A model generated the notes under the pieces. The model made no database searches. It was not told the origin of the DNA and worked only from the letters and a program-made list of their open reading frames with translations. Of a stretch of DNA of 20,000 nucleotides, positions 2,842 to 19,635 are shown piece after piece. Every line of letters begins with the position of its first letter. Position 1 is the stretch's first letter. Source of the stretch: an uncultured virus (IMG/VR IMGVR_UViG_3300049259_000219) (lineage: Duplodnaviria; Heunggongvirae; Uroviricota; Caudoviricetes); IMG/VR virus record IMGVR_UViG_3300049259_000219; one strand, 5' to 3'. The position numbers and the translations under genes are program-made.

Positions 2842-2860
2842 TTTTACGGTACGCGTTCCG
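2842..2860 (-). repeat. Junction motif copy 1
   Basis: + strand TTTTACGGTACGCGTTCCG; contains the TAA stop of 2844..3458. Confidence 0.9.
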
Positions 2861-3458
2861 CGAATTTCGCGACCCACCCGGTTTGATGGCAGGCAGCGCA
2901 CCCGCTGGCATTACACTGCTGACAGACGGTGTTCGTGATGAGGGACGCGTCACACATGACTTCTTCGCCGTCGTGATAATTGCGAGCAGCCGGGGTCGGA
3001 TCTTTAATGAACACCGGCGACCGGCGCATGACCTTGGCAACCGCACGCTGAATCTTTGCCAGTCCTTTCTCCGGCGTGGCCGAGCTGACTTCGAGCGCAG
3101 GATCTTCTTCCGGCGTCCAAGGAGGCGGAGCCGCCTGCTCTTCCTCGTACTCGCGTGGCACACCGAGAATCTCAGGCAGCGGCGCCGCGCCCTCAGGCAG
3201 GATCCGGACGAGGACATGATGCTTCTTCATCCGCACCTTTCCCTGCGGCTGGCCCATCCTATCCAGCCAATCGGGCCGGTAATGCGGACAGGTCTCCCAG
3301 TAGGTTTTCAGGGCCATCATCGCGCTGACCGCCGGCACGTCGCCGAGGTCCCATTCGGTGGCGACGTGTTGCACCTTCTTGATGGCGAGCGTCGAGATGA
3401 TGCGGCGCGTCTTCGCGGAGAGCCGGTACATCCTCATTCCTTCAGGTAGATCGCTCAT
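2844..3458 (-). CDS. Hypothetical protein with C-terminal Cys cluster (204 aa)
   Basis: C-terminal CQQCNASGCAACHQTG resembles CxxCxGxG-type Zn repeats; starts 2 nt after the ssb stop. Confidence 0.75.
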   Translation of the reverse strand: MSDLPEGMRMYRLSAKTRRIISTLAIKKVQHVATEWDLGDVPAVSAMMALKTYWETCPHYRPDWLDRMGQPQGKVRMKKHHVLVRILPEGAAPLPEILGVPREYEEEQAAPPPWTPEEDPALEVSSATPEKGLAKIQRAVAKVMRRSPVFIKDPTPAARNYHDGEEVMCDASLITNTVCQQCNASGCAACHQTGWVAKFAERVP

Positions 3459-3460
3459 AA

Positions 3461-3952
3461 TCAGAAAGGGATATCGTCTTCCTCCGGCGCGTCGAGATCA
3501 GGATCGACGGGCTTGCGCGGAGGCGGCGCAGCAGCCGGCCGCGCCGAAGCTGGCCGCGAAGCTGGCCGCGCCGCCGACGCATCTTCCTCGCCGTCGCCCG
3601 ACGGCTCGCCACCACCAGGGCGACCACCAAGGAATTGCATTGTCTCGCCAACCACCCGCATCTTCGACCGCTTCTGTCCGGTCGTCTTGTCGTCCCACGT
3701 GTCGAGCTTCAGCCGACCCTCGATGTAAACCGGGCGGCCCTTCGCCAGATACTCCTTGGCGATCTCGGCCTGGCGGCCCCAAAGCTCCACGTCGACGAAG
3801 GTCACCTCCTCGCGTTTTTCACCGCTCTCCGTGGTGTAACTACGATTCACCGCCAGGGCGAGATCGGCAATGGCCGTCCCCTTCGGAGTGTACTTGAGCT
3901 CGGGGTCGCGGGTGAGATTCCCCATGAGCATGACTTTATTGAGATTGGGCAT
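3461..3952 (-). CDS. ssb: Single-stranded DNA-binding protein (163 aa)
   Basis: MPNLNKVMLMGNLTRDPELKYTP...WGRQAE...YLAKGRPVYIEGRL OB fold, G/P-rich linker and acidic tip EEDDIPF; start reassigned to ATG 3952. Confidence 0.97.
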   Translation of the reverse strand: MPNLNKVMLMGNLTRDPELKYTPKGTAIADLALAVNRSYTTESGEKREEVTFVDVELWGRQAEIAKEYLAKGRPVYIEGRLKLDTWDDKTTGQKRSKMRVVGETMQFLGGRPGGGEPSGDGEEDASAARPASRPASARPAAAPPPRKPVDPDLDAPEEDDIPF

Positions 3953-4250
3953 TGGAAAGCTGGCGGCGTTTGGCTGGTGTTCGGCGTTTCGGTCGAGGCT
4001 CGGGATCGATGGGCGCACCGCCTTTTACCCAGTCGGCATAGGCGGCCTCGTACGGCTGAAGCCGGACCAGGCTGTGAGGAAGGCGATGACCGAGAGCCCG
4101 CGTCTCCCCTTCGGAAATGGTGTCGAATTTACTGCTCTTCGGAAAATCGGTAGTGAACTCCCACTGCGACCGGCCGCGGGCAGATAGCGTGAAAAGAACG
4201 AAGTGAGCAACAGTGGCTTTGGAAACGAAGACGAACGATTCACCTTCCAC
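3936..4250 (-). CDS. Hypothetical protein (about 104 aa)
   Basis: Fills the gap on the coding strand; GTG start uncertain; short overlap with the ssb start. Confidence 0.45.
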   Translation of the reverse strand: MEGESFVFVSKATVAHFVLFTLSARGRSQWEFTTDFPKSSKFDTISEGETRALGHRLPHSLVRLQPYEAAYADWVKGGAPIDPEPRPKRRTPAKRRQLSNAQSQ

Positions 4251-4265
4251 GAAATGAGGGGGAAA

Positions 4266-4291
4266 GCCGCGCCAGCCTCAGCTGACGCGGC
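4266..4291 (-). terminator. GC-rich hairpin, possible weak intrinsic terminator
   Basis: Minus strand GCCGCGTCAGC-TGAG-GCTGGCGCGGC (11-bp stem, one G-U pair) followed by only TTT; downstream of 4318..4995. Confidence 0.45.
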
Positions 4292-4317
4292 AGGTTAAAG
4301 GTTACGACGGTTACGAC

Positions 4318-4995
4318 TCAGTCCTCCTCGTTCGTCGCCATCGACTCCAGAGCGGCCTCGACCGCCATCAGCTCCTCCGTGGCCTGATGCCCGGTGAGAC
4401 GCAGCAGCTCCGCGTTGTTGCGCTTAATCAGGTCGACCAGCGTCCGCAAGGGATTCTCCGGCACCGACACGAGGCGGCGGGATTGAGGACGGCCGAATGT
4501 CTCGACCTCCCGCGCGGAGACATCGTCACCAAGCGGCCGCGGACGGAAGCTAAAGCCACCATCGAAGCTGACGATCGCGGTGAACTCGGAATACGTGACA
4601 GCACGCCACTCTTCGCTACCGACCTCGCGCACCTGATACTCGCCCTCGTGAGTCCGGTACTCGTGCCGGAGAGCTTCCGCCCGCGCCTTCGCCTCTTCTT
4701 CCGTTGCTTCGCGGAAATCCTCCTGCGGCTCCCATCCGCTTGCGCCGAGATGGGGCTCCCATCCGCCCGAGTTCAAACTCCGGACGACGGTCCGCACCCG
4801 CGGACAGCCAATCCCGGCGTTCTCCCATTCAAGCTCAGTACGCTGGCTTGCCAGTGGCTGACCCTCGGAAGGCTGGCCCTCGGCAGGACCCGTCTCCCCG
4901 GAAGGCGGTTTGCTTGTCTCCTCGGAAGGAGGGTGGCTTGTCCCCGTGGAAGGGGCTTGAGCGGACGGCGCCGCGGATCGTTGGTTTCTTGACAT
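4318..4995 (-). CDS. Hypothetical protein (225 aa)
   Basis: Low-complexity N-terminus, acidic body, helical C-terminus; consistent with the operon strand. Confidence 0.7.
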   Translation of the reverse strand: MSRNQRSAAPSAQAPSTGTSHPPSEETSKPPSGETGPAEGQPSEGQPLASQRTELEWENAGIGCPRVRTVVRSLNSGGWEPHLGASGWEPQEDFREATEEEAKARAEALRHEYRTHEGEYQVREVGSEEWRAVTYSEFTAIVSFDGGFSFRPRPLGDDVSAREVETFGRPQSRRLVSVPENPLRTLVDLIKRNNAELLRLTGHQATEELMAVEAALESMATNEED

Positions 4996-5027
4996 AAGAG
5001 GAAGGCCGACTTGGCAAAAAGAGAAAG

Positions 5028-5513
5028 TTAGATTTTCGGAGCCTCCGCATCGTCCGACTCAGGGGTGCCAGTCGGCAGACCAGCGTCAGGCTTTGGGCAA
5101 CCACCGGGATGAACATGGCAGTTGCCATCACCATCAGTATCGAGACTACACCCCGCCGCCGGCGCATCCTCAGCCGCCGCGATCCGCCCCGTGGCCTTGC
5201 GGCGCGCGACCTTCGTCTCGACCGCATCGAGCTGAAGCGTGCCATCCAGGAGCAGGCGGTGCGTGACCAAAGGAAGCTCGCCCTTGTTCCGCTTCATCGC
5301 GGAGGCGAGTTGCTTATCATCACCATCCACATCGGTCGTGACGAAGCAGCCGAAGTTTTTGGAGGAATCGCGCCTGACGTAGACCTCGATGATCTGAGCC
5401 GTATTCGGCAGGCGAATCAGGAGTGAACCGAAGCGTTCGAGGCGGACCTCGAGGTTGCCTTCGGGCGTGGCGGTGAAGGTGGCAAGTTCGGCAGGCGTAG
5501 GGACGAGGCTCAT
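5028..5513 (-). CDS. Hypothetical protein (161 aa)
   Basis: ATG start, operon strand; C-terminal CSLDTDGDGNCHVHPGGC motif. Confidence 0.75.
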   Translation of the reverse strand: MSLVPTPAELATFTATPEGNLEVRLERFGSLLIRLPNTAQIIEVYVRRDSSKNFGCFVTTDVDGDDKQLASAMKRNKGELPLVTHRLLLDGTLQLDAVETKVARRKATGRIAAAEDAPAAGCSLDTDGDGNCHVHPGGCPKPDAGLPTGTPESDDAEAPKI

Positions 5514-5514
5514 T

Positions 5515-5625
5515 TCAGTGGTTTTTTTTGTGGTGTCTAACGAAAGGGATCACGTCTTGGGGACAGCAACGCCGATCGCAGAAGTCAGCGCCATCGTGGT
5601 TGAGCACTTGCCGCGACCGGGTCAT
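5515..5625 (-). CDS. Possible 36-aa Cys/His-rich peptide
   Basis: Manual translation MTRSRQVLNHDGADFCDRRCCPQDVIPFVRHHKKNH*; ATG overlaps the upstream TGA; stop 1 nt before the next ATG. Confidence 0.4.
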   Translation of the reverse strand: MTRSRQVLNHDGADFCDRRCCPQDVIPFVRHHKKNH

Positions 5626-6005
5626 ACCGCCCCCTCCGCAACGCCGTGCTCCGATTTCGAGAAGCCACACATTGCACACTGGGGAAACCCGTCAGCCTCG
5701 ACGCCCGCACCAATCCCGGCGGGGTCATATTCATCACAGGGCGTATCACCTTCGATTGGAGGCACGCGCTCGCCGTAGGTGGTTAGGCTTCCGGTAATCG
5801 GCTCTCCAGCCGCGTTAGCAGGCGCAGCCGCGACCGGAATACTGGCCTCATGAAGCCAGTCGCTCAACCGAGTGAACCCCAAGAGGTGCGCAACCTCACT
5901 CAATGGATGCGCGACGAGGTTATGAATGGACCACTTGAAATGCTCACGCGACTTCGCGCGAATCGATCGGCACAGACCCTTCAGTTGGCAGTTGGAGCAG
6001 TTCAT
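5622..6005 (-). CDS. Hypothetical His/Cys-rich phage protein (127 aa)
   Basis: Start reassigned to ATG 6005 (MNCSNCQLKGLC); WSIHNLVAHPLSE...SDWLHE motif and C-terminal CAMCGFSKSEH. Confidence 0.7.
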   Translation of the reverse strand: MNCSNCQLKGLCRSIRAKSREHFKWSIHNLVAHPLSEVAHLLGFTRLSDWLHEASIPVAAAPANAAGEPITGSLTTYGERVPPIEGDTPCDEYDPAGIGAGVEADGFPQCAMCGFSKSEHGVAEGAV

Positions 6006-6023
6006 TTTGCGGTACGCGTTACG
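6005..6023 (-). repeat. Junction motif copy 2
   Basis: + strand TTTTGCGGTACGCGTTACG; contains the stop of 6019..6816 and overlaps the ATG at 6005. Confidence 0.9.
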
Positions 6024-6816
6024 GAAGCAGATGCGCGAACCGCTCATGCAGCTCCTTCAACTCCTTCAACTCAGACAGGGCGGCGTCTCGCTCGGCCTGC
6101 ATTTCCGTGAAGACTTTGCCGCACTCAGAGACGCCCTTGTTGTAGCCGCGCTCCTCCTCGTGACGGAGGGCTTGTGCGTGCCTGGATTGCTCCCCTCGCA
6201 GGAAGTTTTCGACGGCGGTACTTTCGTGGAGGTAGGGAACGAGTTGCTGCTCCAGCTCCCGCACTCGGCGCAGCAGGCCAAGCTCAGAATCCTCCACCTT
6301 CATAGCGCATCCGGGCTCGTGTCTACCCGAAGAGCCGAAGTGCAGGCGGGCGCACTCCTTGTGCGTGAAGACTTCGCCGCAATGGAAACAGCGCCATTGA
6401 GTAGCCGCCGCCTCCGCGCGAGCGACGAGCCACTTCACGACATCCTCAAGGCCGTCCGCGCCTTCGTATTCGCCGGCGACTGAGGATTTCGAAAGCACCG
6501 CCTCGGCAGCCACCCAGTCCTTGACGAGGTCAAGAAGATCGCTCGCGTCCTCGCCACCCGATTGATAATTCGCCATCAGCGCCAGGCACTGCTTCACGGT
6601 CTCAGCCGGCCCCTCGGCTTCGGGATCGCGATCAGTCTCGGCTTCGGGATCGCGATCACGCTCTCCTCGAAGTTCGGCGCGGACTCTCTCAACTGCTTGG
6701 AACCATTTCGAGTGGTCAAGGCATCGGTGATCCATATCTTGCGCCAGACGGTCACACTCCGGGCCGACGACCGAAGTCAGCAGCCCGCGTAACATTGATT
6801 CAGAGAGAGGTTTCAT
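6019..6816 (-). CDS. Hypothetical protein with C2H2-like Zn finger and coiled coil (265 aa)
   Basis: WRCFHCGEVFTHKECARLHFG followed by E/L/R-rich helices. Confidence 0.8.
   Translation of the reverse strand: MKPLSESMLRGLLTSVVGPECDRLAQDMDHRCLDHSKWFQAVERVRAELRGERDRDPEAETDRDPEAEGPAETVKQCLALMANYQSGGEDASDLLDLVKDWVAAEAVLSKSSVAGEYEGADGLEDVVKWLVARAEAAATQWRCFHCGEVFTHKECARLHFGSSGRHEPGCAMKVEDSELGLLRRVRELEQQLVPYLHESTAVENFLRGEQSRHAQALRHEEERGYNKGVSECGKVFTEMQAERDAALSELKELKELHERFAHLLP
6613..6658. repeat. In-frame tandem duplication (22-bp identical units, 24-bp period)
   Basis: CTCGGCTTCGGGATCGCGATCA at 6613-6634 and 6637-6658, encoding DRDPEAE twice. Confidence 0.9.
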
Positions 6817-6839
6817 ATTGCGGTACGCGTTCCGTAAAA
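6816..6839 (-). repeat. Junction motif copy 3 (most symmetric copy)
   Basis: + strand TATTGCGGTACGCGTTCCGTAAAA fills the whole gap between the stop at 6840 and the ATG at 6816. Confidence 0.9.
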
Positions 6840-8057
6840 TCAGTAGTCCGCCAGCTTGGCCGAACGAACGGGTGGTTTTGGCGCGGGAGCGCGCTCTTGG
6901 GGTGGCAGCGAACGGGGCACCGCGGCGTCGCCATCCTTCTCGGCGGATTCGGCAATGGCCTCGGTCCGGTCGATGCTTTCAGGATCGAGCTCGCCGACCG
7001 CCTCGCCCGCCTCGGTCCGCGCGAGAGCCAGCCCCTGCCGGAAGCCGGCCAGGAGGCGACGATGGGCAGCACGCGCCACCTTCGGCACGGAGAAGCCAGG
7101 GTCGAACAGATTCTCGATACAGTCAGGCACGATGAAGATCAGGTCCGGGCGATACTGGAACGGTCGGGTCGCGAACTCTTCGGTCAGGATCTCCACCTCC
7201 GTCGCGGTGAACACCCCGTCAATCAGCGCGCGATCGCCGTGGGCCTCATAAGCCACCACCGCTTCGACGATCGTGGCGAGCGAATCCTTGAACGCCCGCT
7301 TGAGCCGGAGCGAACTGGTCTGCGCCTCGGACAAACCGAGGGCCTTCATCGTCGCCTCAATCTGCGCCTGCGCCTTGTTGCGCGACTCCATCAACTTCGT
7401 CAGGCGCTCCTCCATATCCTTCGTAAGCTGCCCGCCTTCGGTCCGCTGACGAATGACCGTCTGCGCCGCGCGCAAGGCTGGCTGAAGGGTGAAGAAAAGG
7501 TTGGCTTCCTGATCAATCAGGGACCGCGCCATCGACCGCTGATTCTCGGACTCGAGCACGACCTCCAGGTCGATGATGCGACCGGCCATGAACCGCCGCT
7601 CGGCCGGGTCCGTGACCTGAACGAAGCCATGCTCCAAAAGTAACTTTTCCAGACTGGCCTCATCGAGCCGGTCGACACTGGCGATGACCGGCCCTTCCGG
7701 CTCCGCGACGACCGCAGCCCGCTGATGGCGCTGCCACAGTCGCTTGGCCTCGGCGAAGCCAGCTTCCACTTCCTTGATCGGCACCGCCAGCTTTTCAGCG
7801 ATCTCATCCATCTTCCAAGGCCGGAGCAGGTCAGGATCTTCCACGCCAAAAAGCGTAGTCGCCCCGAAGAGACGGCAGACGATCCGCCAGAGGGCGGGTT
7901 GCGCGGACAGGACTTCATGCCAGCGGACGACCGCGGTGAACACCTCATCGTCCGAGCCCGCGATGCCGAAGTCGTGCAGCATCAGGCGACCGCTATCAAC
8001 GCGCCAGTCCTCGCCATCAGCGACGTACTCAATAAAGCCAGAGGGATCGATCTTCAT
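6840..8057 (-). CDS. Hypothetical helical protein with HTH-like segment (405 aa)
   Basis: WKMDEIAEKLAVPIKEVEAGFAEAKRLW HTH-like stretch and long amphipathic helices; ATGA overlap with the upstream gene. Confidence 0.8.
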   Translation of the reverse strand: MKIDPSGFIEYVADGEDWRVDSGRLMLHDFGIAGSDDEVFTAVVRWHEVLSAQPALWRIVCRLFGATTLFGVEDPDLLRPWKMDEIAEKLAVPIKEVEAGFAEAKRLWQRHQRAAVVAEPEGPVIASVDRLDEASLEKLLLEHGFVQVTDPAERRFMAGRIIDLEVVLESENQRSMARSLIDQEANLFFTLQPALRAAQTVIRQRTEGGQLTKDMEERLTKLMESRNKAQAQIEATMKALGLSEAQTSSLRLKRAFKDSLATIVEAVVAYEAHGDRALIDGVFTATEVEILTEEFATRPFQYRPDLIFIVPDCIENLFDPGFSVPKVARAAHRRLLAGFRQGLALARTEAGEAVGELDPESIDRTEAIAESAEKDGDAAVPRSLPPQERAPAPKPPVRSAKLADY

Positions 8058-8398
8058 TCGCCAACCTCCACCAGCTTCCGAGGTGTTCCACGTAGAACAT
8101 TGACTGATCGCACCGGCACGTTCGTGTCAATCCGCTTGGCCACGACGCGCGGCGACTCACCCATCTCCAGCTCGAGGCGGATGTTCTGCGCCGCGAGCGT
8201 GCCGTTGGCAAACTCCATAGCGCACAACAGCTCCTCAGCCGTCATGATGCGCCGCAGCTTGTTCCAGGTCGGCGTCCCGTTGCGCTGCCCGCGCAAGACC
8301 TGAACCAGGTGCGGACTGCCCGAGAAGATCATCTTCGCGAGCGAACGAATCGTCATGTTACGCGCCTTCAGCAGCTCGATCAGTCGCAAGTTTTTCAT
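8054..8398 (-). CDS. XRE/Cro-like helix-turn-helix protein (114 aa)
   Basis: LIELLKARNMTIRSLAKMIFSGSPHLVQVLRGQR...TWNKL follows the HTH_XRE pattern. Confidence 0.7.
   Translation of the reverse strand: MKNLRLIELLKARNMTIRSLAKMIFSGSPHLVQVLRGQRNGTPTWNKLRRIMTAEELLCAMEFANGTLAAQNIRLELEMGESPRVVAKRIDTNVPVRSVNVLRGTPRKLVEVGE
8084..8099. promoter_or_regulatory. parS-like palindrome
   Basis: TGTTCCACGTAGAACA, one mismatch from the canonical-type parS TGTTCCACGTGGAACA. Confidence 0.55.
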
Positions 8399-8646
8399 AG
8401 GTCAGTAGCCAAGGCCCACATGCCGGGGTAGCCGGGGACAACTCTGAGAGGAACCCCGGCAAAGCAGGCGCCGAACAGGATCGGACCTTCATTGAGTTCG
8501 CGCCAAACCGCCTCAGAGATCGCGAGGAACGCCGGGAAGTCCCACTGGTGAGCCCGCCGGTAGGACTCCATCGTGACGAGCAGCAACCCGATCACGTCGT
8601 CCTGGACGAGGTCTGCCTTCTTGTCTGGATATTGGGCACGGATCAT
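8395..8646 (-). CDS. Hypothetical protein (83 aa)
   Basis: 4-nt overlaps with both neighbours. Confidence 0.7.
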   Translation of the reverse strand: MIRAQYPDKKADLVQDDVIGLLLVTMESYRRAHQWDFPAFLAISEAVWRELNEGPILFGACFAGVPLRVVPGYPGMWALATDL

Positions 8647-9465: not shown

Positions 9466-9930
9466 TCAGGCATCCACTTCGCCGACATAGTGGTGGGTGA
9501 TGTGGAAGGGGCGACCTTGGCTGTGGTGAAACTCCGCCCATTCGTCTTCACGTATCCACTCCGCCGGCGCACAGGCCGTACAAAGCACCCAGCCCCGGCA
9601 GTGAGCAACCCAATGCGTGTGAAAATACGCGACGCGCGGAGGAACGCCGGGATTCAACCACTTGCCCTCCCACTGCACGCGATTGATTCCGTTGCAGAGG
9701 GTCAGTGTTTTCACGACTCGCGCTTGCGTCAGCCGCCCCAAAAACAGGAGGGCCTGAGACATTTGCGTCGGACTCATCCACCCCTTGTAGTTCACGAGCG
9801 CGGGCCTGACCGCCTCAAGGGTGAGCCCACACGCTGCGGCGATCGAGTGCGGGCCGCACGATGCCTTCCAGTCAAGGTTCGCCCGCTCGGATTCCTCCGC
9901 GCTGTAGCAGAGCTTGGGCAGATCAGACAT
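9466..9930 (-). CDS. Papain-fold (peptidase C39-like) cysteine peptidase (154 aa)
   Basis: SCGPHSIAAAC (catalytic Cys at helix start) and HTHWVA (His strand). Confidence 0.6.
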   Translation of the reverse strand: MSDLPKLCYSAEESERANLDWKASCGPHSIAAACGLTLEAVRPALVNYKGWMSPTQMSQALLFLGRLTQARVVKTLTLCNGINRVQWEGKWLNPGVPPRVAYFHTHWVAHCRGWVLCTACAPAEWIREDEWAEFHHSQGRPFHITHHYVGEVDA

Positions 9931-9951: not shown

Positions 9952-9970
9952 TTTTACGGTACGCGTTCCG
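9952..9970 (-). repeat. Junction motif copy 4
   Basis: + strand TTTTACGGTACGCGTTCCG, identical to copy 1; intergenic between the stop at 9983 and the ATG at 9930. Confidence 0.9.
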
Positions 9971-9982
9971 GATTTTATGGGG

Positions 9983-11399: not shown

Positions 11400-14198
11400 C
11401 TAAGGACCGGTTGGATCGGTTTCGACGATCCCGACCAACGGGTCCGTCGCCATGTTCCCGATGAAATACTCCTGAGTATATGTATCGCAAGAGACCGCGA
11501 CGACCTGAGGAATTACGTCGATGGAACCCGTGTAGCAATTGGTGATCTGTGAATTGTCGGCGATCACCCCATCCTTAACCTCGATGGTCGCAATGACGCG
11601 CGACCAGACCTCGGGAGGTTCATCATCATGACCCACCGGATTGGTGAGGTTACTCAGGCTTTCGCTCAGTTCCAGCGATGCGGAGACGGTGCGACCTCCC
11701 TCCGTCTCGCCGTGGAGAATCATGTAATAAGTGCCATCTTCGTCGCCGCAGACGAACTCCTGATCATTATTGCCCGGCTGGACGTCACGCACGAACCCCG
11801 GGCGCACCTTAACCCGGCGTTCCTGATCGTCCGGAGCGGTGCTGTCCCCGGTGTAGGCGGATTTGTAGGTCTGAAGCGAGACGCGAGCCCCGGCCGCGCC
11901 GCCACCACTGCCGATCTGGACGGGAACGAGAATGGTATCTGTCCCCGCGTACTCATAGAGCACCTGCCCCACCGACCGCCAGCCGGTGCCCCGCTTGGCC
12001 GTGCAATCCACTTCGGTCGCGTCGCAACCGACCGAGTCGCCCGGATGAAACGGCCCCTTCACTCGGACCGGCACGGTGCCATAAGTGACGCAGGCCGCGT
12101 GTGTCGTGGCACCCTCCGCGACGACGATGCCCCCGAAGGTATCGAACTTGGCGTCATCACCCGAGCCCGAGGCCAGCCAGACGACCTGACCGGCGTGCGT
12201 CGTCGTGACGTTGCGAATCGAGATGCTGCACCGATGCGCACCGACCGGCCGTTGCATGACCTCCGAGACAGTGGAGTAGGCATTGGGCGAGTTGCGCTTC
12301 AGCTCGCGGGAGAGCTTGGCGATCAAATGCAACTGCTCGACCTCCTTGGCGTTGTTCTTCTGGCCGGGAAAGAGATCCCGCGCCTTTGCCTTTCGATCGA
12401 GGTCGCGCTCGTTCTCAAAGTTACTTTGCGACCGCTCCTTCGTGTACTCGACCTGCTCTGTCAGCGCATCGGCAAAGCTAAGATTGACGCTCACGCGGTC
12501 AATCGTGCTCGTCAGCGCGGTGCCGACGCTGCCGTGTCGAGTGTAGCCGCCCGATCGATAGACGGCGACCTGGGCCGTCACCGTCGATGCACACTCGGCA
12601 GCCTTCGTGTCGACAGAGCGGTTATCCGCATAGACGACCTCGCTTTGAAAGACGCCGCCATCCATCAGCGCGTGGTAATTCAAGCCGCTGATATACTTCG
12701 CCCCCTTGCGGACGCCACTGCCAAACCTCTTCGAGTAGCGCTCCGCGGAGAAGACCATGGAGGCCCGGACCGGCGCCGCCGTGACGACCACGTCCGCATT
12801 CGGCACCGCGATGTTATAGAGCGGATCGCCTTCCTCCAACGAGTCATGGTTCGGGAAGAGGAAGAGCGCGTGCTCATCGGTCCCCGGAAGAAAGACCGCG
12901 TGCTCAAAGATGACGCAGTAGTTTTTCACGTCCAAGGTGAATTTGTTTTGCGCACTCCAGCTATCGGCCGACGCCGAGAGCTGCTCCGGCGTAATTGCTC
13001 CCTGCGTGCGCGGATCAAGCAACTCCATCGGCTGGCCCTTCGCGATGATGAATGCCTTCGCGTCCGGGTAATATTCGCTCGGCGATTTGTAGATCATCTC
13101 GCCGTCATCGATCGAATAAGTCACCGCCGCCAACAGCCCGTCATTGATCTCCAGACTCTCCAGATCGATGCCGTTGATGGTGTAGGTGGTTGGCACGCGG
13201 TAAGCCTTCCAAACAATATCTTGAAGGTAGACCCACACCGGAATCTCCATACGGCCGACCTCACCCCAAGTGCCGGCATCGATATAATCATCCCCCTTCT
13301 TCGCGACGTACTCCCGAACCGTCACCGACCGGGCCTTGGCGACGAGCTCCCCCTGACTCGCGACATCGTCGGCATCCAGCTCAAACTGCGCAGCGACTTC
13401 CGCCAGCCACGCCGGCTCGGACCAGAACTCCTCATAGACAGACTTCCAATCAGGAGTGAGATCGATCGGCAAATCCTGGTATCGGTTACGATCGCCGACG
13501 ATGCGCACCTTTGTGTCGTTATTAGACAACGCATCACCGTCCTTCCAGTCAGTCACGTTGTCTGGGATGGCCACCAGATCGCCCTCGCCCTTACGAACCC
13601 AAAGCAAGGTGTTCTCACCCACCAACGTGAAGACCAACCCCTGCTGTTCGCTGACTTCCTGCAACAGCGTCCCGAACTTCTGGCCGTTATTGTCGCCAAT
13701 CGAATAGACCGGCTTGTCCTGATCGGCATGGAAGGTGAAGTTCCAAACCGTTTCCACGGTTTCGCTTTCATATATACCATTGATAACGGCAACGGCGCTT
13801 AGCGGCGACTGTGTCCAAGTTTTCTGTTGTGCGTCCCAATCGTCGGGAAAGATATGCCAATACCTTTTCTGGCGATCAAGACCAGGCGTGGCCGGATTAT
13901 CCTCCCTGACTTCGGCGTTGTTAAAGGTGCAGTACACATCATCCCACATCAGCTTGATCCGATTATCCACGAGCTGCAGCTCAGTCATCGTGCCCCACGA
14001 TGCCGTTGTCGGATTCTGATTGATGATGCCATTAAAGACACTGCCCCCGAGCGTGATCGCCACCGCATCGCCAACATGCAAAGCGATCCCGGCCGCAGCA
14101 CCCGGAATGGTGACCGTCGCCGAGGCCGGCGAAAGACCCCAGCTATAGGTCAACTGCATCGCCGCAACATCGAATCCGCCAACAGTGATCGCCGCCAT
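11400..14198 (-). CDS. Putative tail/baseplate hub-like virion protein (932 aa)
   Basis: N-terminal strands ITLGGSVFNGII...TELQLVD and FGTLLQEVSEQQGLVFTL recall tail hub proteins; the C-terminal GTVPVRVKGPFHPGDSV module recalls phage fibre/decoration domains. ORF is secure, function is inferred. Confidence 0.55.
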   Translation of the reverse strand: MAAITVGGFDVAAMQLTYSWGLSPASATVTIPGAAAGIALHVGDAVAITLGGSVFNGIINQNPTTASWGTMTELQLVDNRIKLMWDDVYCTFNNAEVREDNPATPGLDRQKRYWHIFPDDWDAQQKTWTQSPLSAVAVINGIYESETVETVWNFTFHADQDKPVYSIGDNNGQKFGTLLQEVSEQQGLVFTLVGENTLLWVRKGEGDLVAIPDNVTDWKDGDALSNNDTKVRIVGDRNRYQDLPIDLTPDWKSVYEEFWSEPAWLAEVAAQFELDADDVASQGELVAKARSVTVREYVAKKGDDYIDAGTWGEVGRMEIPVWVYLQDIVWKAYRVPTTYTINGIDLESLEINDGLLAAVTYSIDDGEMIYKSPSEYYPDAKAFIIAKGQPMELLDPRTQGAITPEQLSASADSWSAQNKFTLDVKNYCVIFEHAVFLPGTDEHALFLFPNHDSLEEGDPLYNIAVPNADVVVTAAPVRASMVFSAERYSKRFGSGVRKGAKYISGLNYHALMDGGVFQSEVVYADNRSVDTKAAECASTVTAQVAVYRSGGYTRHGSVGTALTSTIDRVSVNLSFADALTEQVEYTKERSQSNFENERDLDRKAKARDLFPGQKNNAKEVEQLHLIAKLSRELKRNSPNAYSTVSEVMQRPVGAHRCSISIRNVTTTHAGQVVWLASGSGDDAKFDTFGGIVVAEGATTHAACVTYGTVPVRVKGPFHPGDSVGCDATEVDCTAKRGTGWRSVGQVLYEYAGTDTILVPVQIGSGGGAAGARVSLQTYKSAYTGDSTAPDDQERRVKVRPGFVRDVQPGNNDQEFVCGDEDGTYYMILHGETEGGRTVSASLELSESLSNLTNPVGHDDEPPEVWSRVIATIEVKDGVIADNSQITNCYTGSIDVIPQVVAVSCDTYTQEYFIGNMATDPLVGIVETDPTGP

Positions 14199-14209: not shown

Positions 14210-14228
14210 TTTTACGGTACGCGTCCCG
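14210..14228 (-). repeat. Junction motif copy 5
   Basis: + strand TTTTACGGTACGCGTCCCG; contains the TAA stop of the upstream gene, 11 nt before ATG 14198. Confidence 0.9.
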
Positions 14229-14871
14229 CAATTCCACGGAAGGAGTTGCGCGTTGAATCGACCACAATCTTGACCGGAAAGTCGCGCGGCACCGGAGCCA
14301 CCTTGGAAAAATTACGGCCCGTCGGCAGCACGTCGTCCTCACTCGGCGCGACGTTCTGAATACGCAAGCCGAGCGATGGTGAAATATCGAAATGGGCCGG
14401 GTAATCGAGCTGGCAGTAACCCGAACTCATCGACGCGGTCAACTCCACCTCGAGCTCCTCTCCCGGTTGAAGCTCGACGTCTTCATTCAGCGTGTAGTGG
14501 CAAGCCGCGGTATCAATGATGGCGTTGAACTCAGACCCCACAGAGTAGCGAACCGCAGACCGCACGGTGCTGATCTTGAACCGGCACCGCGACCGCAGAA
14601 AAGTAACTTCCTGAGCCGCCACCCAGTCATCTGTCCCGGCAATCGCCACCTCCGCCTTGACCTCCCAATCGGAACGCCAGGCGGCAATGACCATCCAGTC
14701 CCGCATGTAAGGCCGCGCATCCTCGATCGGCTTCCACGGCCCCCACTCCGCCGGCGGCACAGCGGGCTGCCGGAACGCGAGCCGAATGCGATAGCCCTGC
14801 TCGGGCGCAACGCCGTCCCATTGGAGCCAAACATGGACTCCATCCCAAGCGCCGCAAAGGTAGCAATTCAT
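14212..14871 (-). CDS. Hypothetical beta-rich protein (219 aa), FN3/Ig-like N-terminus possible
   Basis: ATG 14871 is preceded by GGGGAG; VWLQWDGVAPEQGYRIR resembles FN3-type strands. Confidence 0.65.
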   Translation of the reverse strand: MNCYLCGAWDGVHVWLQWDGVAPEQGYRIRLAFRQPAVPPAEWGPWKPIEDARPYMRDWMVIAAWRSDWEVKAEVAIAGTDDWVAAQEVTFLRSRCRFKISTVRSAVRYSVGSEFNAIIDTAACHYTLNEDVELQPGEELEVELTASMSSGYCQLDYPAHFDISPSLGLRIQNVAPSEDDVLPTGRNFSKVAPVPRDFPVKIVVDSTRNSFRGIAGRVP

Positions 14872-14890: not shown

Positions 14891-14949
14891 CACAATTACT
14901 TGTGCAATTCACGATTTCCCATTGACGCGAATGCAACAACTGTTGCAAT
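14891..14949. promoter_or_regulatory. Divergent control region with operator-like palindromes
   Basis: AT-richer gap between divergent genes; CACAA-ttac-TTGTG (14891-14904), TTGACG -35-like hexamer (14922-14927), TGCAACA-ac-TGTTGCA (14932-14947). Confidence 0.6.
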
Positions 14950-14973
14950 GCTGACAACCCCTTAACTCGTCCC

Positions 14974-15207
14974 ATGCCTAAACCTCCAGCGTCCGTAGGG
15001 ATAGCCCTTACTTGCAGCGACATTGCCACCCAAATTGCGGCCAGCGGTCGCGGGAGCTGCGACCGCTCCACGGTCTGGCGGGTCATCAAGCGGCTCAAGA
15101 TCGAACCGACCATCAAGGCCGGCCGATATAGCCTCTACTCCGCGGAAGACGCGAAGAAGATCGCCGCCACGATCCGCCCGCAAACCGCCGATACCGCTGA
15201 TAAATGA
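14974..15207 (+). CDS. Small HTH DNA-binding protein (Xis/MerR-like, 77 aa)
   Basis: LTCSDIATQI...DRSTVWRVIKRLKIEP...GRYSLYSAED winged-HTH pattern; ATGA overlap with the primase. Confidence 0.65.
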   Translation: MPKPPASVGIALTCSDIATQIAASGRGSCDRSTVWRVIKRLKIEPTIKAGRYSLYSAEDAKKIAATIRPQTADTADK

Positions 15208-18200
15208 GCACAGGCTCCACGGACCCGGAGATCTGGAACACAGCGCGGCAGCGCCTACCGCTGCCCCTGCTGCTGACGAAGCTGGGGGACGGCTCCCACA
15301 CCAAGAAGGGCGCGGACTGCCCATTCTGCGGCACTGGCAAGGGCAAGTGGGCCATCTTCGAGAAGGGCGGCAAACACTTCTTCAAGTGTCACGAACCGGA
15401 CTGCGTCGCGAACGAGAACGAGGTCGGACACAACGAGATCGCCTACATCCAGCTCCGCCGCGGGATGGAAGCCAAGGAAGCCGCGAAGGAGTATCTCCGC
15501 CTGGCCGTCCCCGATCTAGTGCCGGAACTTTTCGACCGCCCGCCGGAGCGCAAGGCGCGCAAGGCCCGACTGGGCCTCGGCGAAGAGGACGACGACGAGA
15601 TTCCCGGGATCGCGCCCGCAGCCCCGCCGCCACCGCCGCCGCCCCGAGACGGCGAAGCGCGCAACGTCTGGCATGCTCTCTGGAAGAAGCTGCCCCTGAC
15701 CGTCGACGACCGCGCCAAGCTCCGCGTGGCCCGCGGATTGAGCGACGACACGATAAATCGCCTCGGCTTTCGCTCCAACAACGGGAGCAACTTCCACCAC
15801 CTACAGGCGCTGGCCGACGACTTCTCACTCGACGAGCTGATCGCCGAAGGCATCTACAAGGACGAGGGCAGCCGCGGCGCCAAGGCGAGCGGACAGTTTC
15901 AAGGGTGGGGAATCACGGACCAAAAGGACAAGACCGGCAAGGCCATCTTTGAACAGACGGAGCCGATCCTCATTCCCTACCTCGACGCCGACGGGGTGCC
16001 GTTCTACATGCGGCCCCACAAGGGTGGCGTGAAGAAACCAAAGGACGAGCTCGAGGAGCTGGACCTTGACGAAGACGCGCCGGAAAGCTGCGCCAGCCAC
16101 GTCTATTGCCCCTACCTCCTGGTCGAACTGATCCTGTTCAACGATGGCCTTTGCGTGCTGACCGAAGGGGAGTTCAAAGCGGCTGCGCTCTGGCAATGCG
16201 GCATCGCGGCGATCGCCTGCCCAGGCATCCAGTTCGTCCGCAATCAGGCTTTCCGCGCCGAGCTGGTCGAGATCCTGCGGACCTTCGGCGTGACCGACCT
16301 GGTCGTGATCTTCGACAACGAGGTGAAGGACGACCCCGCCTTTCCGAAGCGCTACAAGGCCGACCCTTGGAAGCGGTGGGATACGCCCATGTGGGCGGAG
16401 TACACAGCCATCGACCTGAAGGACTATTTTGCGTCACGCGGGACCTGCCGAATCGGCTGGCTGCCCGATCAATACCGCGTCGAAGGAAAGGCCGACTGCG
16501 ACGGCATCCTCGCGCAGATGGTCCATAAGTACGGGATGGATGAAGGGACGAGGCAGGCCCGCCGCATCTTCCTCCAGACGATCGAGTCATCGAGCGAGAA
16601 ACCGACGATTGACCTCTTCCCTTCGGAGAGCCGCCGCATCATCGAATGCAAACTCTCCCGGCTGTACTACAAACCGCTCGTGCAGTTGGGCGGGAACAAG
16701 GAAATGACGCTGGCCCGCCGCTTTGCGGAGCACGACGAGAACGGTCGCATCGTCGACAAGCCGATGGCCGATCTTTTCCGGAGCCTGCGCGGCTGCTACT
16801 ACAAACGCGCCAAGCCCAAGGAGAAGCATCTCGACTCGCTCCACGAAGAGAAGGTCGCCCTGCAAAAGACGATCGAGGAGCTGAAGGAGGCGGGCAAGTC
16901 CGCAACCCCGCAATGGGAGCGAGCCCGCCGCCAGAAACTCCGCATCGCCCACGCCAAGCTCGCGGTGGTCTGGGAGAACCTCAAGGGCATCCCCGAGCCG
17001 CTTAGTAACTTTACCCTCGCCTGCGAGTACAAGCTCCACACGACCCTCGGCGATGTGCATCGACTGGTGAACGTGAGGGATTCGAAGGAGCGGACCAAAC
17101 GCGACGCGGCCATGCGCCGCCTTGCCCCGAGCGATCTCGCCCGCCTCGCGGACTTCCGCAAATGGTGTTACAGCACGGGTGAGGCGGTCTGGACAGGCGG
17201 AGACAAGGAGCTGCAGCACCTGGTCCAAGACATGGACCATCACTCCTTCCTCCGCGACATTCACGAGATCACGACCTACGGCTTTCACCCGGCGTCGAAG
17301 CTCTGGTTTTTCGGCGACGTGGCCTTCGGACCGGACGGCCGCCCGATCCTGCCCGACGCCAGCAACATCTTTTGGTACGACGGCATTGGCTACCAGATCG
17401 ACCAGAGCATCCACGAGCGCGGCGAGTCCTTCGTACAAGGATCGCCCCTCCTCCTCCAGCCGCAGGGCACGGTGCCACCGCTGGAGAATCCAGACGTGCC
17501 AGCCATGTTCCGCCAGCTTTCAGAAGACCTTTTCAACACGGTCGGCGGGTACGACGGCTGGCTGATCATGGGCATGATCGCGGCCTATGCCATCGCCCCG
17601 GAATTGATCCGCGCCGGCGGGCACCCCGGCCTCTGGCTCTTCGGCAAAATGTCGAGCGGCAAGACGACCGTGGCGCGCTGGGCAATGCGGGTGTGGGGAT
17701 TCAAGGAACTCGGCGGCATCCGCATCGGCGAGAGCACCACGTCGACCGCGATGAACCGCTTCCTCGCTCAATACAATTCGCTCCCGGTCTGGATGGACGA
17801 ATACCGGCGCCTCTCCGTCGACGCACAGCGGGAGGAAGTCCTACGCGGTGCCTTCGACCGAAGCTCGGCCGCCAAGGGCGTGGCCGACCACTCCAACAAG
17901 ACCCGCAACGCGACGATCCTGACGATGCCCGTCATCTCCGGCGAATCAAGCTCCGGCGACGCCGCGACCCGCAGCCGGTACGGCCACGTGAACGTCTCGG
18001 CTCACAAGCGCATCGGCGACGGCCATGCCCGGTATGTCCGCGTCCAGAACGAGCAGCTCCATTTCTACCACATCGGCTATTGGCTGATGAGCAACCGCAA
18101 GGCGTTCGCGGAAAAGACGATCGCGCTCCTGGAGTCGTGGATGGCCGACCCGACCGTGAAGGCAGCCATCATCAACGAACGCGTCCGCTTCGTTCACGGC

Positions 18201-18857
18201 ACCGCCTACGCGTCCTTCTACACCCTCGCCGATATGCTCGGCATGGGGAAGTCGGTGACCGTGCCCGAGAACGCCGATTCCGACGAAGATCCGGACCGGA
18301 CGAACACCCAAGCGGCCCGCTTCCGCATTGCCGAGTTTCAGTCCTACCTTTTCAAGCACGGCGAACAAGCCCTTGCCGATGTTATCGAGGAGACGTTTAT
18401 CAATTCCTTTTGGCGCGACATTATTTCCGGTATCCAACTCGCTAAGATTTCCCGCAAACTTCTGGTTACGCGTTACGTGAAAGTATTACCGGATGGTCGC
18501 CTGACCGAAGTCAACGCAAACGAAGACGGCGCTATCCACGTGGTCTATGTTGCGTCCGAGTCTGTATTCGCCAGCTACCAGGCTTATAAGGCCGGCCGCC
18601 GCGAAGACGCACAACAACAGCTATCCGATATTCGGCGCGAAATGGAGAAGGAGCCCTATTGGATTCCAGCACCGAAGAGCAAGGACGCGCGCGTCCATCG
18701 TATTTCGATCATTGGCCACAAGACGAGCTGCTGGGTCATCACGCTGGAGAAGGAGCCTCCAGTGAACGGCAGGCCAGGCCGCTACCTCTTCCCCTTCGCC
18801 GAGGATATCATCGACTCGCTGACCGAGGAAGCCCACGAGGTCGAGGAACCGACCTAG
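15204..18857 (+). CDS. Primase-helicase (Zn finger + TOPRIM + P-loop helicase, 1217 aa)
   Basis: CPFCG...FFKCHEPDC Zn ribbon; TOPRIM LTEGEFKAAAL...CPGI...VIFDNE...KADCD; Walker A GKMSSGKTT, Walker B VWMDEY, motif C-like VISGE, arginine-finger-like ATRSR. Confidence 0.88.
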   Translation: MSTGSTDPEIWNTARQRLPLPLLLTKLGDGSHTKKGADCPFCGTGKGKWAIFEKGGKHFFKCHEPDCVANENEVGHNEIAYIQLRRGMEAKEAAKEYLRLAVPDLVPELFDRPPERKARKARLGLGEEDDDEIPGIAPAAPPPPPPPRDGEARNVWHALWKKLPLTVDDRAKLRVARGLSDDTINRLGFRSNNGSNFHHLQALADDFSLDELIAEGIYKDEGSRGAKASGQFQGWGITDQKDKTGKAIFEQTEPILIPYLDADGVPFYMRPHKGGVKKPKDELEELDLDEDAPESCASHVYCPYLLVELILFNDGLCVLTEGEFKAAALWQCGIAAIACPGIQFVRNQAFRAELVEILRTFGVTDLVVIFDNEVKDDPAFPKRYKADPWKRWDTPMWAEYTAIDLKDYFASRGTCRIGWLPDQYRVEGKADCDGILAQMVHKYGMDEGTRQARRIFLQTIESSSEKPTIDLFPSESRRIIECKLSRLYYKPLVQLGGNKEMTLARRFAEHDENGRIVDKPMADLFRSLRGCYYKRAKPKEKHLDSLHEEKVALQKTIEELKEAGKSATPQWERARRQKLRIAHAKLAVVWENLKGIPEPLSNFTLACEYKLHTTLGDVHRLVNVRDSKERTKRDAAMRRLAPSDLARLADFRKWCYSTGEAVWTGGDKELQHLVQDMDHHSFLRDIHEITTYGFHPASKLWFFGDVAFGPDGRPILPDASNIFWYDGIGYQIDQSIHERGESFVQGSPLLLQPQGTVPPLENPDVPAMFRQLSEDLFNTVGGYDGWLIMGMIAAYAIAPELIRAGGHPGLWLFGKMSSGKTTVARWAMRVWGFKELGGIRIGESTTSTAMNRFLAQYNSLPVWMDEYRRLSVDAQREEVLRGAFDRSSAAKGVADHSNKTRNATILTMPVISGESSSGDAATRSRYGHVNVSAHKRIGDGHARYVRVQNEQLHFYHIGYWLMSNRKAFAEKTIALLESWMADPTVKAAIINERVRFVHGTAYASFYTLADMLGMGKSVTVPENADSDEDPDRTNTQAARFRIAEFQSYLFKHGEQALADVIEETFINSFWRDIISGIQLAKISRKLLVTRYVKVLPDGRLTEVNANEDGAIHVVYVASESVFASYQAYKAGRREDAQQQLSDIRREMEKEPYWIPAPKSKDARVHRISIIGHKTSCWVITLEKEPPVNGRPGRYLFPFAEDIIDSLTEEAHEVEEPT

Positions 18858-18888
18858 CGGCTGCGAAAAGAGACGCCCGCCCTCCCCC

Positions 18889-18916
18889 TGACCCCTTCCG
18901 AAAGGGGTCATGTTTT
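18889..18916 (+). terminator. Intrinsic terminator after the primase
   Basis: TGACCCCTT-CCGA-AAGGGGTCA perfect 9-bp stem followed by TGTTTT. Confidence 0.75.
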
Positions 18917-18987
18917 CGATTGCTGAGTGTGCTGGCAGACGGTCGCGTTGCTTGCAAGCGCCCGAGTGGCAGGCGGCGCATATTTCA

Positions 18988-19063
18988 ACACGTGGAAACT
19001 TTGTACGATTCCGGTCAGCAGCGACCGCCCGAGCGGGGAACCGGCAAGAAAGTTTCCACGTGT
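18988..19063. repeat. Perfect 15-bp inverted repeat, 46-bp spacer
   Basis: ACACGTGGAAACTTT (18988-19002) / AAAGTTTCCACGTGT (19049-19063). Confidence 0.85.
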
Positions 19064-19082
19064 ATTGGAGCATCCGAGCCAA

Positions 19083-19376
19083 GGACACCAAACCGGGTGT
19101 CCGAGGCCACCAGTGGTGTCTTTGCAAGTAGCTGAGCGCGAGCAGGATCGGACGCAAGGACACCAGGACACCAGATTTCAGGTACAGCCGCCTAGTGAAG
19201 CGCGCGACACGACCGATGATCGAGCGCCCCAGTGGCGACCTTCCGAATTTTTTGCGTAAGAGATATGAAAATCTGGTGACTTGGTGTCCTTCCTCTTCTT
19301 TTGAGAGATAACTATCTCTCTTTCAAAGGAATAGAACGGACACCACCACGGCCACCAGGCGGCCACCACGGTGTCC
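19083..19376. repeat. Iteron-like GGMCACCA cluster around an AT-rich tract; putative replication origin
   Basis: GGACACCA at 19083, 19158, 19166, 19338; GGCCACCA at 19105, 19350, 19361; inverted copies at 19096, 19114, 19282, 19370; AT-rich stretch about 19245-19335. Confidence 0.65.
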
Positions 19377-19616
19377 GAGCTTGCCGCCCGCCCGATCTCG
19401 CAAAAGTTACTTTCCGAAAAGTCCCGTGCCCCCAAGATCGAGGCCCAGGTCGTGCATCCGGCGCGGTCCCATGCCCCCGAGGATTTCGGCCGGCGTCACG
19501 ATCCACAACCGCAGGCCGCCGGCGTGTTCGACGTGGATCTCGGCGCGAGCGAGCTGGTATTCTGGCGATCTCTCACGCGCAGACGGCTCCAGTACCCGAA
19601 AGCCGATTCGATTTCT

Positions 19617-19635
19617 AGGAACGCGTACCGCAAAA
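19617..19635 (+). repeat. Junction motif copy 6 (opposite orientation)
   Basis: AGGAACGCGTACCGCAAAA, the reverse complement of TTTTGCGGTACGCGTTCCT. Confidence 0.88.

Follow-up and report, generated by a model that had tools for sequence, protein, structure and literature searches.

Phage-wide operator arrays are an already known concept, not a new one. Published accounts describe several such systems. Cluster O mycobacteriophages carry a 17-bp dyad, with 34 copies in Corndog, many of them intergenic and mostly off predicted promoters (PMC4351075). This repeat is predicted to bind a dimeric protein, its function is unknown, and it shows little involvement in rearrangements (PMC4351075). In cluster K phages, the SAS has 13 bp, is asymmetric, and is capable of pairing with 16S rRNA, and the ESAS are 17-bp repeats whose spacer varies (PMC3203893). 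Cluster A (L5) stoperators are asymmetric 13-mers recognized by a monomeric two-domain repressor, and their reversal abolishes repression (PMC9283540). On plasmid RK2, KorB is a ParB-family clamp that acts from palindromic OB sites, with KorA as a partner, to silence genes near or far (PMC11790492). PeSL cassettes of T4-type phages combine strong sigma-70 promoters with terminator stem-loops, and their recombination has been shown (PMC2839356).

The window, i.e., the whole 20-kb stretch of DNA that was analyzed, belongs to a tailed phage of 77 kb (contig of 77,117 bp), which is a soil virus of Verrucomicrobia-type bacteria. Its relatives are prophages in Verrucomicrobiota; those compared at the junctions, G001 and G002, are distant, with 46 to 50% identity in the terminase large subunit (TerL). 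Closer relatives, known from their proteins, lie on contigs of 44,782 and 16,027 bp and have a TerL of 76 to 78% identity. We compared 11 related prophages, several of them covered incompletely; L016, L023, L028, and L029 were scanned as loci only and are excluded from this count, L030 and L032 are terminase fragments only, and 34 distant primase loci stand outside the comparison. Group-wide genome searches returned relatives in 2/401 (both known), 2/401 (one new), and 1/401 (known) cases. Our searches found no cultured relative of this phage family and no paper on it, and the present analysis gives an initial view of how genes are controlled in this little-studied group. Shared genes are in the same order in the window and in three relatives (G001, G002, and G003), and the genes from ORF 6840 to TerL vary among relatives. 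The integrase and Xre-like gene found in G001 are absent from the matching places in the window, which we weigh against the operator reading proposed below; the window phage therefore need not be temperate. The genes that matter here are as follows.

2 to 1534, minus strand: terminase large subunit, running off the window (full protein 571 aa)
3461 to 3952, minus strand: single-strand binding protein
8054 to 8398, minus strand: small Cro/Ner-like HTH protein (by Atlas features, 0.92 to clusters of HTH_3; the Pfam match to HTH_26, at E 0.12, falls below the cut-off)
14974 to 15207, plus strand: small HTH-like protein before the primase (G001 homolog matches HTH_11, E 0.0018)
15204 to 18857, plus strand: primase-helicase

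A preliminary description of this DNA had reported a six-copy invariant core, and this core is real. The exact sequence TTRCGGTACGCGT occurs at 2844, 6007, 6818, 9954, and 14212 on the plus strand and at 19621-19633 on the minus strand, i.e., six times when a second-order Markov model predicts 0.0012 copies. Allowing up to two mismatches yields nine matches, compared to a mean of 0.76 and a maximum of 4 in 200 shuffles; three of the nine are a copy matched again as its palindromic mirror. The six 24-bp sites each score 35 to 40 bits on the matrix derived from them, and the next independent match is far weaker.

2842 to 2865, minus strand: copy 1 of the 24-bp palindromic site; gives the TAA of ORF 2844-3458 (-ERVP*) and lies 1 nt before the ATG of ORF 2586-2840
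6005 to 6028, minus strand: copy 2; contains the TAA of ORF 6019-6816 and overlaps the in-frame ATG at 6005, which we chose as the start of ORF 5622-6047 (a match to PHROG 36447)
6816 to 6839, minus strand: copy 3; occupies the entire gap from the TGA of ORF 6840-8057 to the ATG at 6816
9952 to 9975, minus strand: copy 4; separates ORF 9983-11398 from ORF 9466-9930, 21 nt before the ATG
14210 to 14233, minus strand: copy 5; gives the TAA of ORF 14212-14871 (-GRVP*), 11 nt before the ATG at 14198
19612 to 19635, plus strand: copy 6; in non-coding DNA beyond the primase and presumed origin; its ortholog in G001 is the first site of the array, and its 3' flank is conserved
18459 to 18482, plus strand: weak seventh look-alike within the primase gene (9.6 bits)

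Elsewhere, the TTRCGGTACGCGT core is found in 15 stretches of viral contigs and 93 of metagenomes, which we judged to be chance since each has a single copy and no tblastn match to window proteins. A six-copy palindrome near L020 was dropped because it lies in a conjugative-element-like region with a terminase fragment only (ORFs read by eye).

Judged by its letters, the site is best described as a near-palindrome of 24 bp, centered on an invariant CGCG. The earlier division into 8-bp inverted arms around a slightly asymmetric 8-bp spacer needs qualifying: the central 8 bp are themselves self-complementary at 6/8 positions and are the most invariant part of the site, and the arms are degenerate, their 60 pairs in the window copies comprising 35 Watson-Crick, 2 G-T, and 23 mismatched pairs. 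The window copies have one common asymmetric position, oriented with transcription, which counts against an operator since a plain homodimer would not need one. On the same side of the site, the flank can be an A-tract or a T-tract, and such interchangeability fits reading of DNA shape, not base pairing.

Five of the six site centers lie at most 35 nt upstream of a start, as does 3.9% of the window (P about 5e-7, a value that rests on our own choice of starts), and an automatic gene caller places all five left copies at most 20 nt from a stop. These five copies had been described as stop/start junctions just before an ATG, which is what we see, with the ATG anywhere from a 1-nt overlap with the site to 21 nt beyond it. 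We likewise find that three copies supply the upstream stop, as a TAA given to ORFs ending in -ERVP*, -GRVP*, and -HLLP*. The reported lack of a Shine-Dalgarno (SD) sequence is correct for the five starts but is nothing special, as 21/22 window genes have no simple SD match. In the direction of transcription, all six copies read GGAACGCGTACCGYAAAA-like; this orientation rule is valid for the window (6/6) but not family-wide, since the G002 consensus is symmetric and the flanks of one G001 site are the other way round. Sigma-70 promoters are not enriched in the window (4 found vs. 3.9 expected), and thus no promoter is demonstrated beneath any site. Relatives do not conserve the five junction positions, and gene order is collinear across them. 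Absence of the motif from relatives' junctions, named beforehand as an argument against a junction-linked system, is observed in part: 0/7 printed orthologous left-arm junctions of G001 and G002 have a site.

The site is not a host REP-like repeat in the genomes surveyed, which may not be those of the true host. Among 331 genomes from a related host order (possibly not the true host's), there are 0 exact copies and only 7 one-mismatch matches, in 6 genomes, which is below a reversed-pattern control. A further check found the site in 0/4 genomes. As a control, heptamer repeats of the related prophages occur throughout host genomes. Together with the confinement of homologous arrays to prophages, these counts support the original idea of a phage-specific multicopy cis site and speak against a common host repeat.

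Two of the 11 related prophages (G001 and G002) have CGCG-centered 24-bp arrays of 8 copies each in a different spelling, lying mostly or wholly inside the prophage and clustered in the early region. The first copy of each array occupies the same post-primase place as window copy 6. In G001, all 8 sites are within the prophage, with 0 elsewhere in 3.7 Mb, and a matrix from this phage alone ranks the window copies 1st, 2nd, 3rd, 6th, and 8th across the window. When its first site is aligned with window copy 6, the flank is conserved and the core is altered on both sides. In G002, the 8 sites lie around CGCG directly after the primase, all outside called genes (8/8), with 5/8 located 14 to 52 nt before a start and one supplying the upstream TAG and abutting the ATG; genome-wide, 6/8 matches at up to one mismatch are within the prophage. 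A third prophage (G005) has a 30-copy array of another palindrome, whose homology to the window site is not established because it is ACGT-centered and 14/30 sites are in called genes. Even-centered arrays are thus present in only 3/11 related prophages, which we weigh against the operator reading; the fetched parts of G003, G006-G011, and G524, several of them incomplete, show none. Spelling is uniform within each phage and different between related phages, a pattern that joint change of site and protein would produce. The window phage, G001, and G002, with homologous arrays, different spellings, and one orthologous anchor copy, form a natural matched set in which to look for the binding protein and to ask by what route an entire array is re-coded.

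On balance, and with moderate confidence, we favor the view that a dimeric regulator encoded by the phage uses the sites as operators, that their spelling was re-coded from phage to phage, and that copies spread to gene starts in the window's lineage; among the options listed in the preliminary description, a repressor site is the best. The operator would be double-stranded DNA, a 16-bp palindromic core around CGCG that A/T-tract flanks extend to 24 bp, bound by a dimeric protein of the phage's own. The founder copy would be the one that separates the origin region from the first early gene, and later copies would have been added as blocks at gene 5' ends, sparing reading frames. The bound protein would repress early promoters or block elongation, leaving the phage silenced, and concerted change of site and protein would create an immunity-type specificity.

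Candidate binders are the products of the genes at 8054 and 14974, both plausible HTH proteins by sequence, or an Xre-like or ParB/KorB-like protein encoded outside the window. Homologs of the former are found in G001, G002, G003, G007, and G009, with different recognition helices, and of the latter in G001, G002, G003, and G010. We rejected as a binder a 262- to 318-aa early protein that is site-flanked in G001, G002, and G005, as it is also present in G006, G007, and G524, whose fetched parts show no array; its model is poor (pLDDT 51) and an Atlas link to DUF3102 (0.84) is a lead only. ORF 6840 has a well-folded model (pLDDT 87), with no PDB or BFVD match at E 0.001.

A second motif, AAAGTWACTTT (class A), is common to the window, G001, and G002, the latter two both encoding a ParB-like protein. 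The features concerned are listed below.

1498 to 1508, no strand assigned: class A motif inside TerL
7637 to 7647, no strand assigned: class A motif inside ORF 6840-8057
12417 to 12427, no strand assigned: class A motif inside ORF 11400-14198
19403 to 19413, no strand assigned: class A motif, non-coding, after the primase
8084 to 8099, no strand assigned: palindrome of 16 bp that precedes ORF 6840-8057 by 27 nt and resembles a parS consensus

Similar parS-like sites are found in the same region of G003, G005, and G007. ParB-like proteins are encoded by G001, G002 (two), G003, and G005, but by none of the fetched parts of G006-G011 and G524. No ParB is encoded within the window, and the search of its contig was insensitive (1 protein returned, known homologs missed).

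These proteins raise the possibility, which we consider unlikely, that the 24-bp sites load a ParB/KorB/Noc-type CTP clamp that organizes, partitions, or silences phage DNA at a distance, rather than being local operators. ParB-like genes do cover all three relatives with even-centered arrays, and the 16-bp palindromic cores match the length of Noc sites. However, the recognition helices of the G001 and G002 ParB are nearly identical (SLTH..NC) while their 24-bp spellings differ, and the class A motif, common to both, appears from sequence to be the better fit for ParB; moreover, G003 has a ParB and no array in its fetched part, and a sliding clamp needs no tight placement at starts. An RNA-level element just upstream of the start codon (a translation-initiation signal, a translational operator, or a hairpin processing site) is quite unlikely. 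It would account for the 6/6 orientation, the conservation of the start-proximal half, and starts always lying 12 to 34 nt downstream of the site center, and G001/G002 sites can form CGCG-loop hairpins (to -12.9 kcal/mol). Yet shuffled sequences fold just as well as the window copies (z -0.44 to +0.90), leaving the suggested RNA hairpin unsupported, arm pairs are often mismatched, Rfam has no match to the site, copy 6 and 5/8 G001 sites are more than 170 nt from a called start, and SD sequences are lacking in general. That the sites are promoter elements, or activator sites of a phage-encoded transcription factor turning on the following gene, is very unlikely: they are start-associated, oriented, uniform per phage, and early-region clustered in G001/G002, but in three window copies the ATG overlaps the site or is 1 nt away, so that a downstream promoter could fit only if transcripts were leaderless, and site-to-start distances range from 12 to more than 300 nt. 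The first early gene, sigma-like by eye, obtained no Pfam support.

We give still less credence to a non-functional or selfish mini-repeat surviving only at gene junctions. The same prophages hold many small junction repeats, 8/11 relatives show no array (partial data), copy 3 fills its gap exactly, and the C terminus of ORF 14212 extends 4 residues past that of its closest homolog, as from block insertion; but the other repeats are host-wide whereas the 24-bp sites are prophage-confined, and one copy persists, with changes on both of its sides, at a non-coding position that is orthologous. In a lox/dif-type tyrosine recombinase site, the inverted arms are conserved and the overlap region between them is asymmetric. 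Copies 2 and 3 do bracket one ORF exactly, genes for a small serine recombinase and an integrase occur in relatives, and gene content between ORF 6840 and TerL differs among them. Nevertheless, a lox/dif/res-type site shuffling gene cassettes, another option raised initially, is the least credible reading and is unsupported: the center is palindromic and invariant and the arms are degenerate, recombination among the five direct copies would delete the genes between them that relatives conserve (ORFs 6840, 8054, 8643, and 11400), shared genes remain collinear in G001, G002, and G003, and the serine recombinase is also present in G003, G006, and G524, none of which shows an array. In sequencing-run contigs (part of each of three runs, with one contig covering 1-3938), no listed joint falls on a site, a coverage too thin to weigh on either side.

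A more speculative reading, to which we attach a low probability, is that this phage family runs a two-layer plasmid-like silencing system. A ParB/KorB-type CTP clamp would load on the evenly spaced AAAGTWACTTT motifs and a second protein at the re-coded 24-bp sites would stop it at gene starts, in a KorA/KorB-like manner, with re-spelling setting the immunity type; this lineage, which has no integrase at the usual place and has a parS-like site, might have distributed the sites across its whole genome and so remain silent as a prophage outside the chromosome.

Set against these published systems, our arrays resemble PeSL in being repeated small putative regulatory elements, those of PeSL lying between variable genes, but window copies have no sigma-70 promoter or hairpin (PMC2839356). 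With KorB/OB they have in common palindromic sites, and ParB-like genes occur in four related prophages (G001, G002, G003, and G005) but not in the window; that is a plasmid system with KorA, whereas here we have a tailed phage whose relatives' ParB fits class A better (PMC11790492). Cluster A genomes have more than 20 sites genome-wide, in short intergenic spaces and oriented with transcription (PMC9283540); 6/6 window copies follow transcription too, but the relatives do so less strictly, one G001 site having reversed flanks. Unlike stoperators, ours are 24-bp near-palindromic dyads, with a symmetric consensus in G002 (PMC9283540), and no HTH-plus-stoperator-domain repressor was detected in the window by Pfam or PHROG matches. 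Cluster K SAS/ESAS are also oriented and directly upstream of starts (5/6 copies here), are also scarce in the host, and the inverted-repeat consensus of ESAS varies between subclusters (PMC3203893). In contrast to SAS, we find a single palindrome, with five starts having no SD match upstream, and while SAS/ESAS stay with the same gene families, 0/7 printed G001/G002 orthologous junctions carry a site here, the relatives being distant (PMC3203893). The cluster O repeat is likewise a phage-wide dyad array with many intergenic sites, comparable to six copies over the 20-kb window and the arrays in G001, G002, and G005. It differs in having 7-bp arms and a 3-bp A/T center, instead of 24 bp with a CGCG center, and in showing little orientation bias and no tie to starts, when window copies are start-tied and oriented (PMC4351075). 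Finally, cluster O has one spelling in all five phages, whereas our arrays are re-spelled between phages, in a different host phylum (PMC4351075).

The core TTRCGGTACGCGT occurs in six exact copies in the window, five on the plus strand and one on the minus strand, against 0.0012 expected under a Markov model. With a matrix built from the six copies, the 24-bp sites score 35 to 40 bits and the next independent place in the window scores 9.6, which bears out the claim of a six-copy motif made in the preliminary description. The consensus in the direction of transcription is nnTnnCGGAACGCGTACCGnAAAA.

Starts of the 24-bp site in the window (matrix built from the six sites)
2842, copy 1
6005, copy 2
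6816, copy 3
9952, copy 4
14210, copy 5
19612, copy 6, the anchor copy after the primase

Five of the site centers lie no more than 35 nt upstream of a start, positions that make up 3.9% of the window (P ~5e-7, on our own gene set, which includes a start at 6005 that we selected next to the site). With an automatic gene caller, which missed two downstream ORFs and shifted one start, all five left copies (copies 1 to 5) still have a stop codon no more than 20 nt away. The proposed location at stop/start junctions thus holds, but the lack of a clear SD said to accompany it is not special, since it applies to 21 of the 22 window genes. The earlier parse into 8-bp arms around an 8-bp asymmetric spacer obscures that the ACGCGT center is an invariant, perfect palindrome with poorly paired arms: of 60 arm pairs in the window copies, 35 are Watson-Crick, 2 are G-T, and 23 are mismatched. 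A single asymmetric position adjoins the center, oriented with transcription in all six copies. The better-conserved half is start-proximal.

The window is part of a 77,117-bp contig and encodes a terminase large subunit (TerL), an SSB, and a primase-helicase; a search of 50,697 phage records with TerL found no match. One soil run contains this DNA and is its possible source. Alignment revealed relatives in bacterial genomes at 16 loci, and 15 of these carry a Verrucomicrobiota title. The closest, G001:C7 (genome:contig), spans ~78 kb as an integrated prophage, one edge of which carries an integrase. No integrase is present in the matching window slot between ORFs 8643 and 8054 (named by start), where the sole content of 8398-8643 is an 83-aa ORF. 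Most relatives keep the 405-aa protein of 6840-8057, which belongs to no known family, upstream of TerL (237 matches at E 0.001), and its confident structural model gave no fold match. After the primase, window 18889-19380 holds a terminator followed by GGACACC/GGCCACC repeats, with a 23-nt inverted repeat at 19156-19178/19269-19291; prophages G001 and G002 carry GCCAC-type repeats at the matching place, and the region is a probable replication origin. G001, G003, and G009 have an Xre-like gene beyond the origin, and the window does not. The first early gene beyond the anchor site (window from 19868) is reminiscent of a sigma factor when the G005 and G006 versions are inspected by eye (L239:2826-3635 and L132:4743-5732), a resemblance for which Pfam gave no support. 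Other features are a short tandem duplication at 6613-6660 within ORF 6019-6816, CA-rich repeats at 19845-19892 at the start of the 19868 ORF, and, in G001:C7 45712-50006 (L157), a PRTRC-type ubiquitin cassette (Prok_Ub, Prok-E2_D, ThiF, and PRTRC_E).

The site does not behave as the common host repeat that the preliminary description had set against its own proposal. The motif had no match in four genomes carrying relatives, and 331 genomes of G001's order, which may not be the host's, gave 0 exact and 7 one-mismatch matches, fewer than the reversed control; collection scans returned single copies only. As a control, heptamer repeats of the same prophages occur throughout host genomes, and tandem heptamers were host-wide in both of two genomes tested. 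Such tandem repeats lie at gene junctions in the G005, G002, G003, G007, and G524 prophage regions, with a unit that differs per genome.

We examined 11 related prophages (G001-G003, G005-G011, and G524), several in part only. G001 has eight sites of the form W-tract, RGGGCG-CGCG-CGCCCY, AAAA, all within the prophage; the remaining part of the 3.7 Mb has none. The first site aligns with window copy 6, the 40 bp that follow it being nearly identical and its core altered on both sides of CGCG. A G001-only matrix ranks window copies 1st, 2nd, 3rd, 6th, and 8th in the window, with low absolute scores. G002 has eight sites of the form AAGTGGTTTC-CGCG-GAAACCACTT within 8 kb after the primase, the first of which, as in the window, lies ~760 nt beyond the primase stop. 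All eight are outside called genes. Five precede a start by 14 to 52 nt, and one site provides the TAG of the upstream gene and adjoins the next ATG; genome-wide at one mismatch there are eight matches, six in the prophage and two elsewhere. G003 has a single degenerate site at the orthologous place, and the partly incomplete regions of G003, G006-G011, and G524 yielded no array. In G005, 30 copies of an ACGT-centered palindrome, 14 inside called genes, are spread over three contigs with phage-like genes and are possibly homologous to the window site. Separately, six copies of GCTCCCKCGMGGGAGC in G004:C2 264-317 kb (L127-L130), mostly intergenic and confined to a conjugative-element-like region, are likely the operator set of that element. 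The dyad array is phage-confined and, in the window, tied to starts; two relatives have it in another spelling, with the center and the anchor copy kept.

Junction copies, expected in relatives by the preliminary description, were absent from all seven printed orthologous left-arm junctions of G001 and G002. Since these junctions lack the site and gene order is kept, the five left copies look like gains in the window lineage. Copy 3 exactly fills a stop-to-start gap that is 6 nt in G001, and ORF 14212 extends four residues beyond its closest homolog; the copies would have arrived by block insertion. That the site is a selfish repeat is quite improbable in our estimation. Recombination sites for module shuffling are hardly credible, because the gene order common to relatives is kept and seven relatives, some with arrays and some lacking them, have a small serine recombinase. 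Folding of the window copies as RNA was no better than that of shuffled sequences (z -0.44 to +0.90) and Rfam gave no match to the site; we regard an RNA-level element as rather unlikely. A promoter or activator site is less probable still, and neither sigma-70 promoters nor terminators were enriched in a scan of the window.

We lean, with slightly better than even confidence, toward an array bound by a dimeric phage protein. This phage-encoded dimer would bind the site and, once bound, would repress or road-block transcription. The motif is real and phage-specific, and it is probably an operator array. Both suggested binders remain candidates, ORF 8054 being Cro/Ner-like and ORF 14974 HTH-like; their homologs in G001 and G002 have altered helices, and array-less relatives have homologs too. 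An early protein with sites on either side did not pass a test of co-occurrence with arrays. Among the relatives examined, ParB-like proteins occur only in G001, G002, G003, and G005. A ParB-type clamp site is an unlikely alternative, though the least so of those considered: at the equivalent (placed by eye) of R173, the ParB specificity position (PMC7383237), the ParB common to G001 and G002 has leucine in both although their 24-bp spellings differ, and that of G003 has arginine. This pattern fits better with a second palindrome common to G001 and G002, the class A motif AAAGTWACTTT, than with the differing 24-bp sites.

Class A and parS-like palindromes
Window 1498, 7637, 12417, 19403: AAAGTWACTTT
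Window 14600: AAAGTWACTTT with one mismatch
G001:C7 26-96 kb: span of AAAGTWACTTT
G002:C2 35-125 kb: span of AAAGTWACTTT
Window 8084-8099: parS-like palindrome
Window 19698: weaker parS-like palindrome
G003:C102 15356, G005:C504 13078, G007:C123 9847: parS-like palindrome

The four window copies of AAAGTWACTTT compare with 0.001 expected; the G001 prophage contains 11 and that of G002 contains 12, with an average spacing of a few kilobases. The motif is evenly spaced and spelled the same in the three phages. G003 has one copy, a look-alike occurs five times in G009, and the motif is absent from the other fetched relative regions. Its 12-letter form was not commoner than the control in the 331 genomes, except G001. 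In G002 it often supplies the stop codon and adjoins an ATG, and it co-occurs with one ParB-like family; in G001:C7 58047-59816 (L157:18047-19816), a small Arc-like gene (E 0.074) directly precedes the ParB-like gene, and there is a class A site upstream. The palindrome at 8084-8099, which we take to be parS-like from its presumed consensus, is retained in several relatives close to the ORF 6840/8643 region and may recruit host ParB.

A literature search, mostly of open-access text, found no description of the phage family or motif. The site resembles the cluster O 17-bp dyad repeat (PMC4351075), cluster K SAS/ESAS (PMC3203893), cluster A stoperators (PMC9283540), and KorB/OB (PMC11790492), but on the features tested it belongs to none of them. 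PeSLs (PMC2839356) need a promoter and a stem-loop, both absent at the site. The array is a variant within a kind of system that is itself already known.
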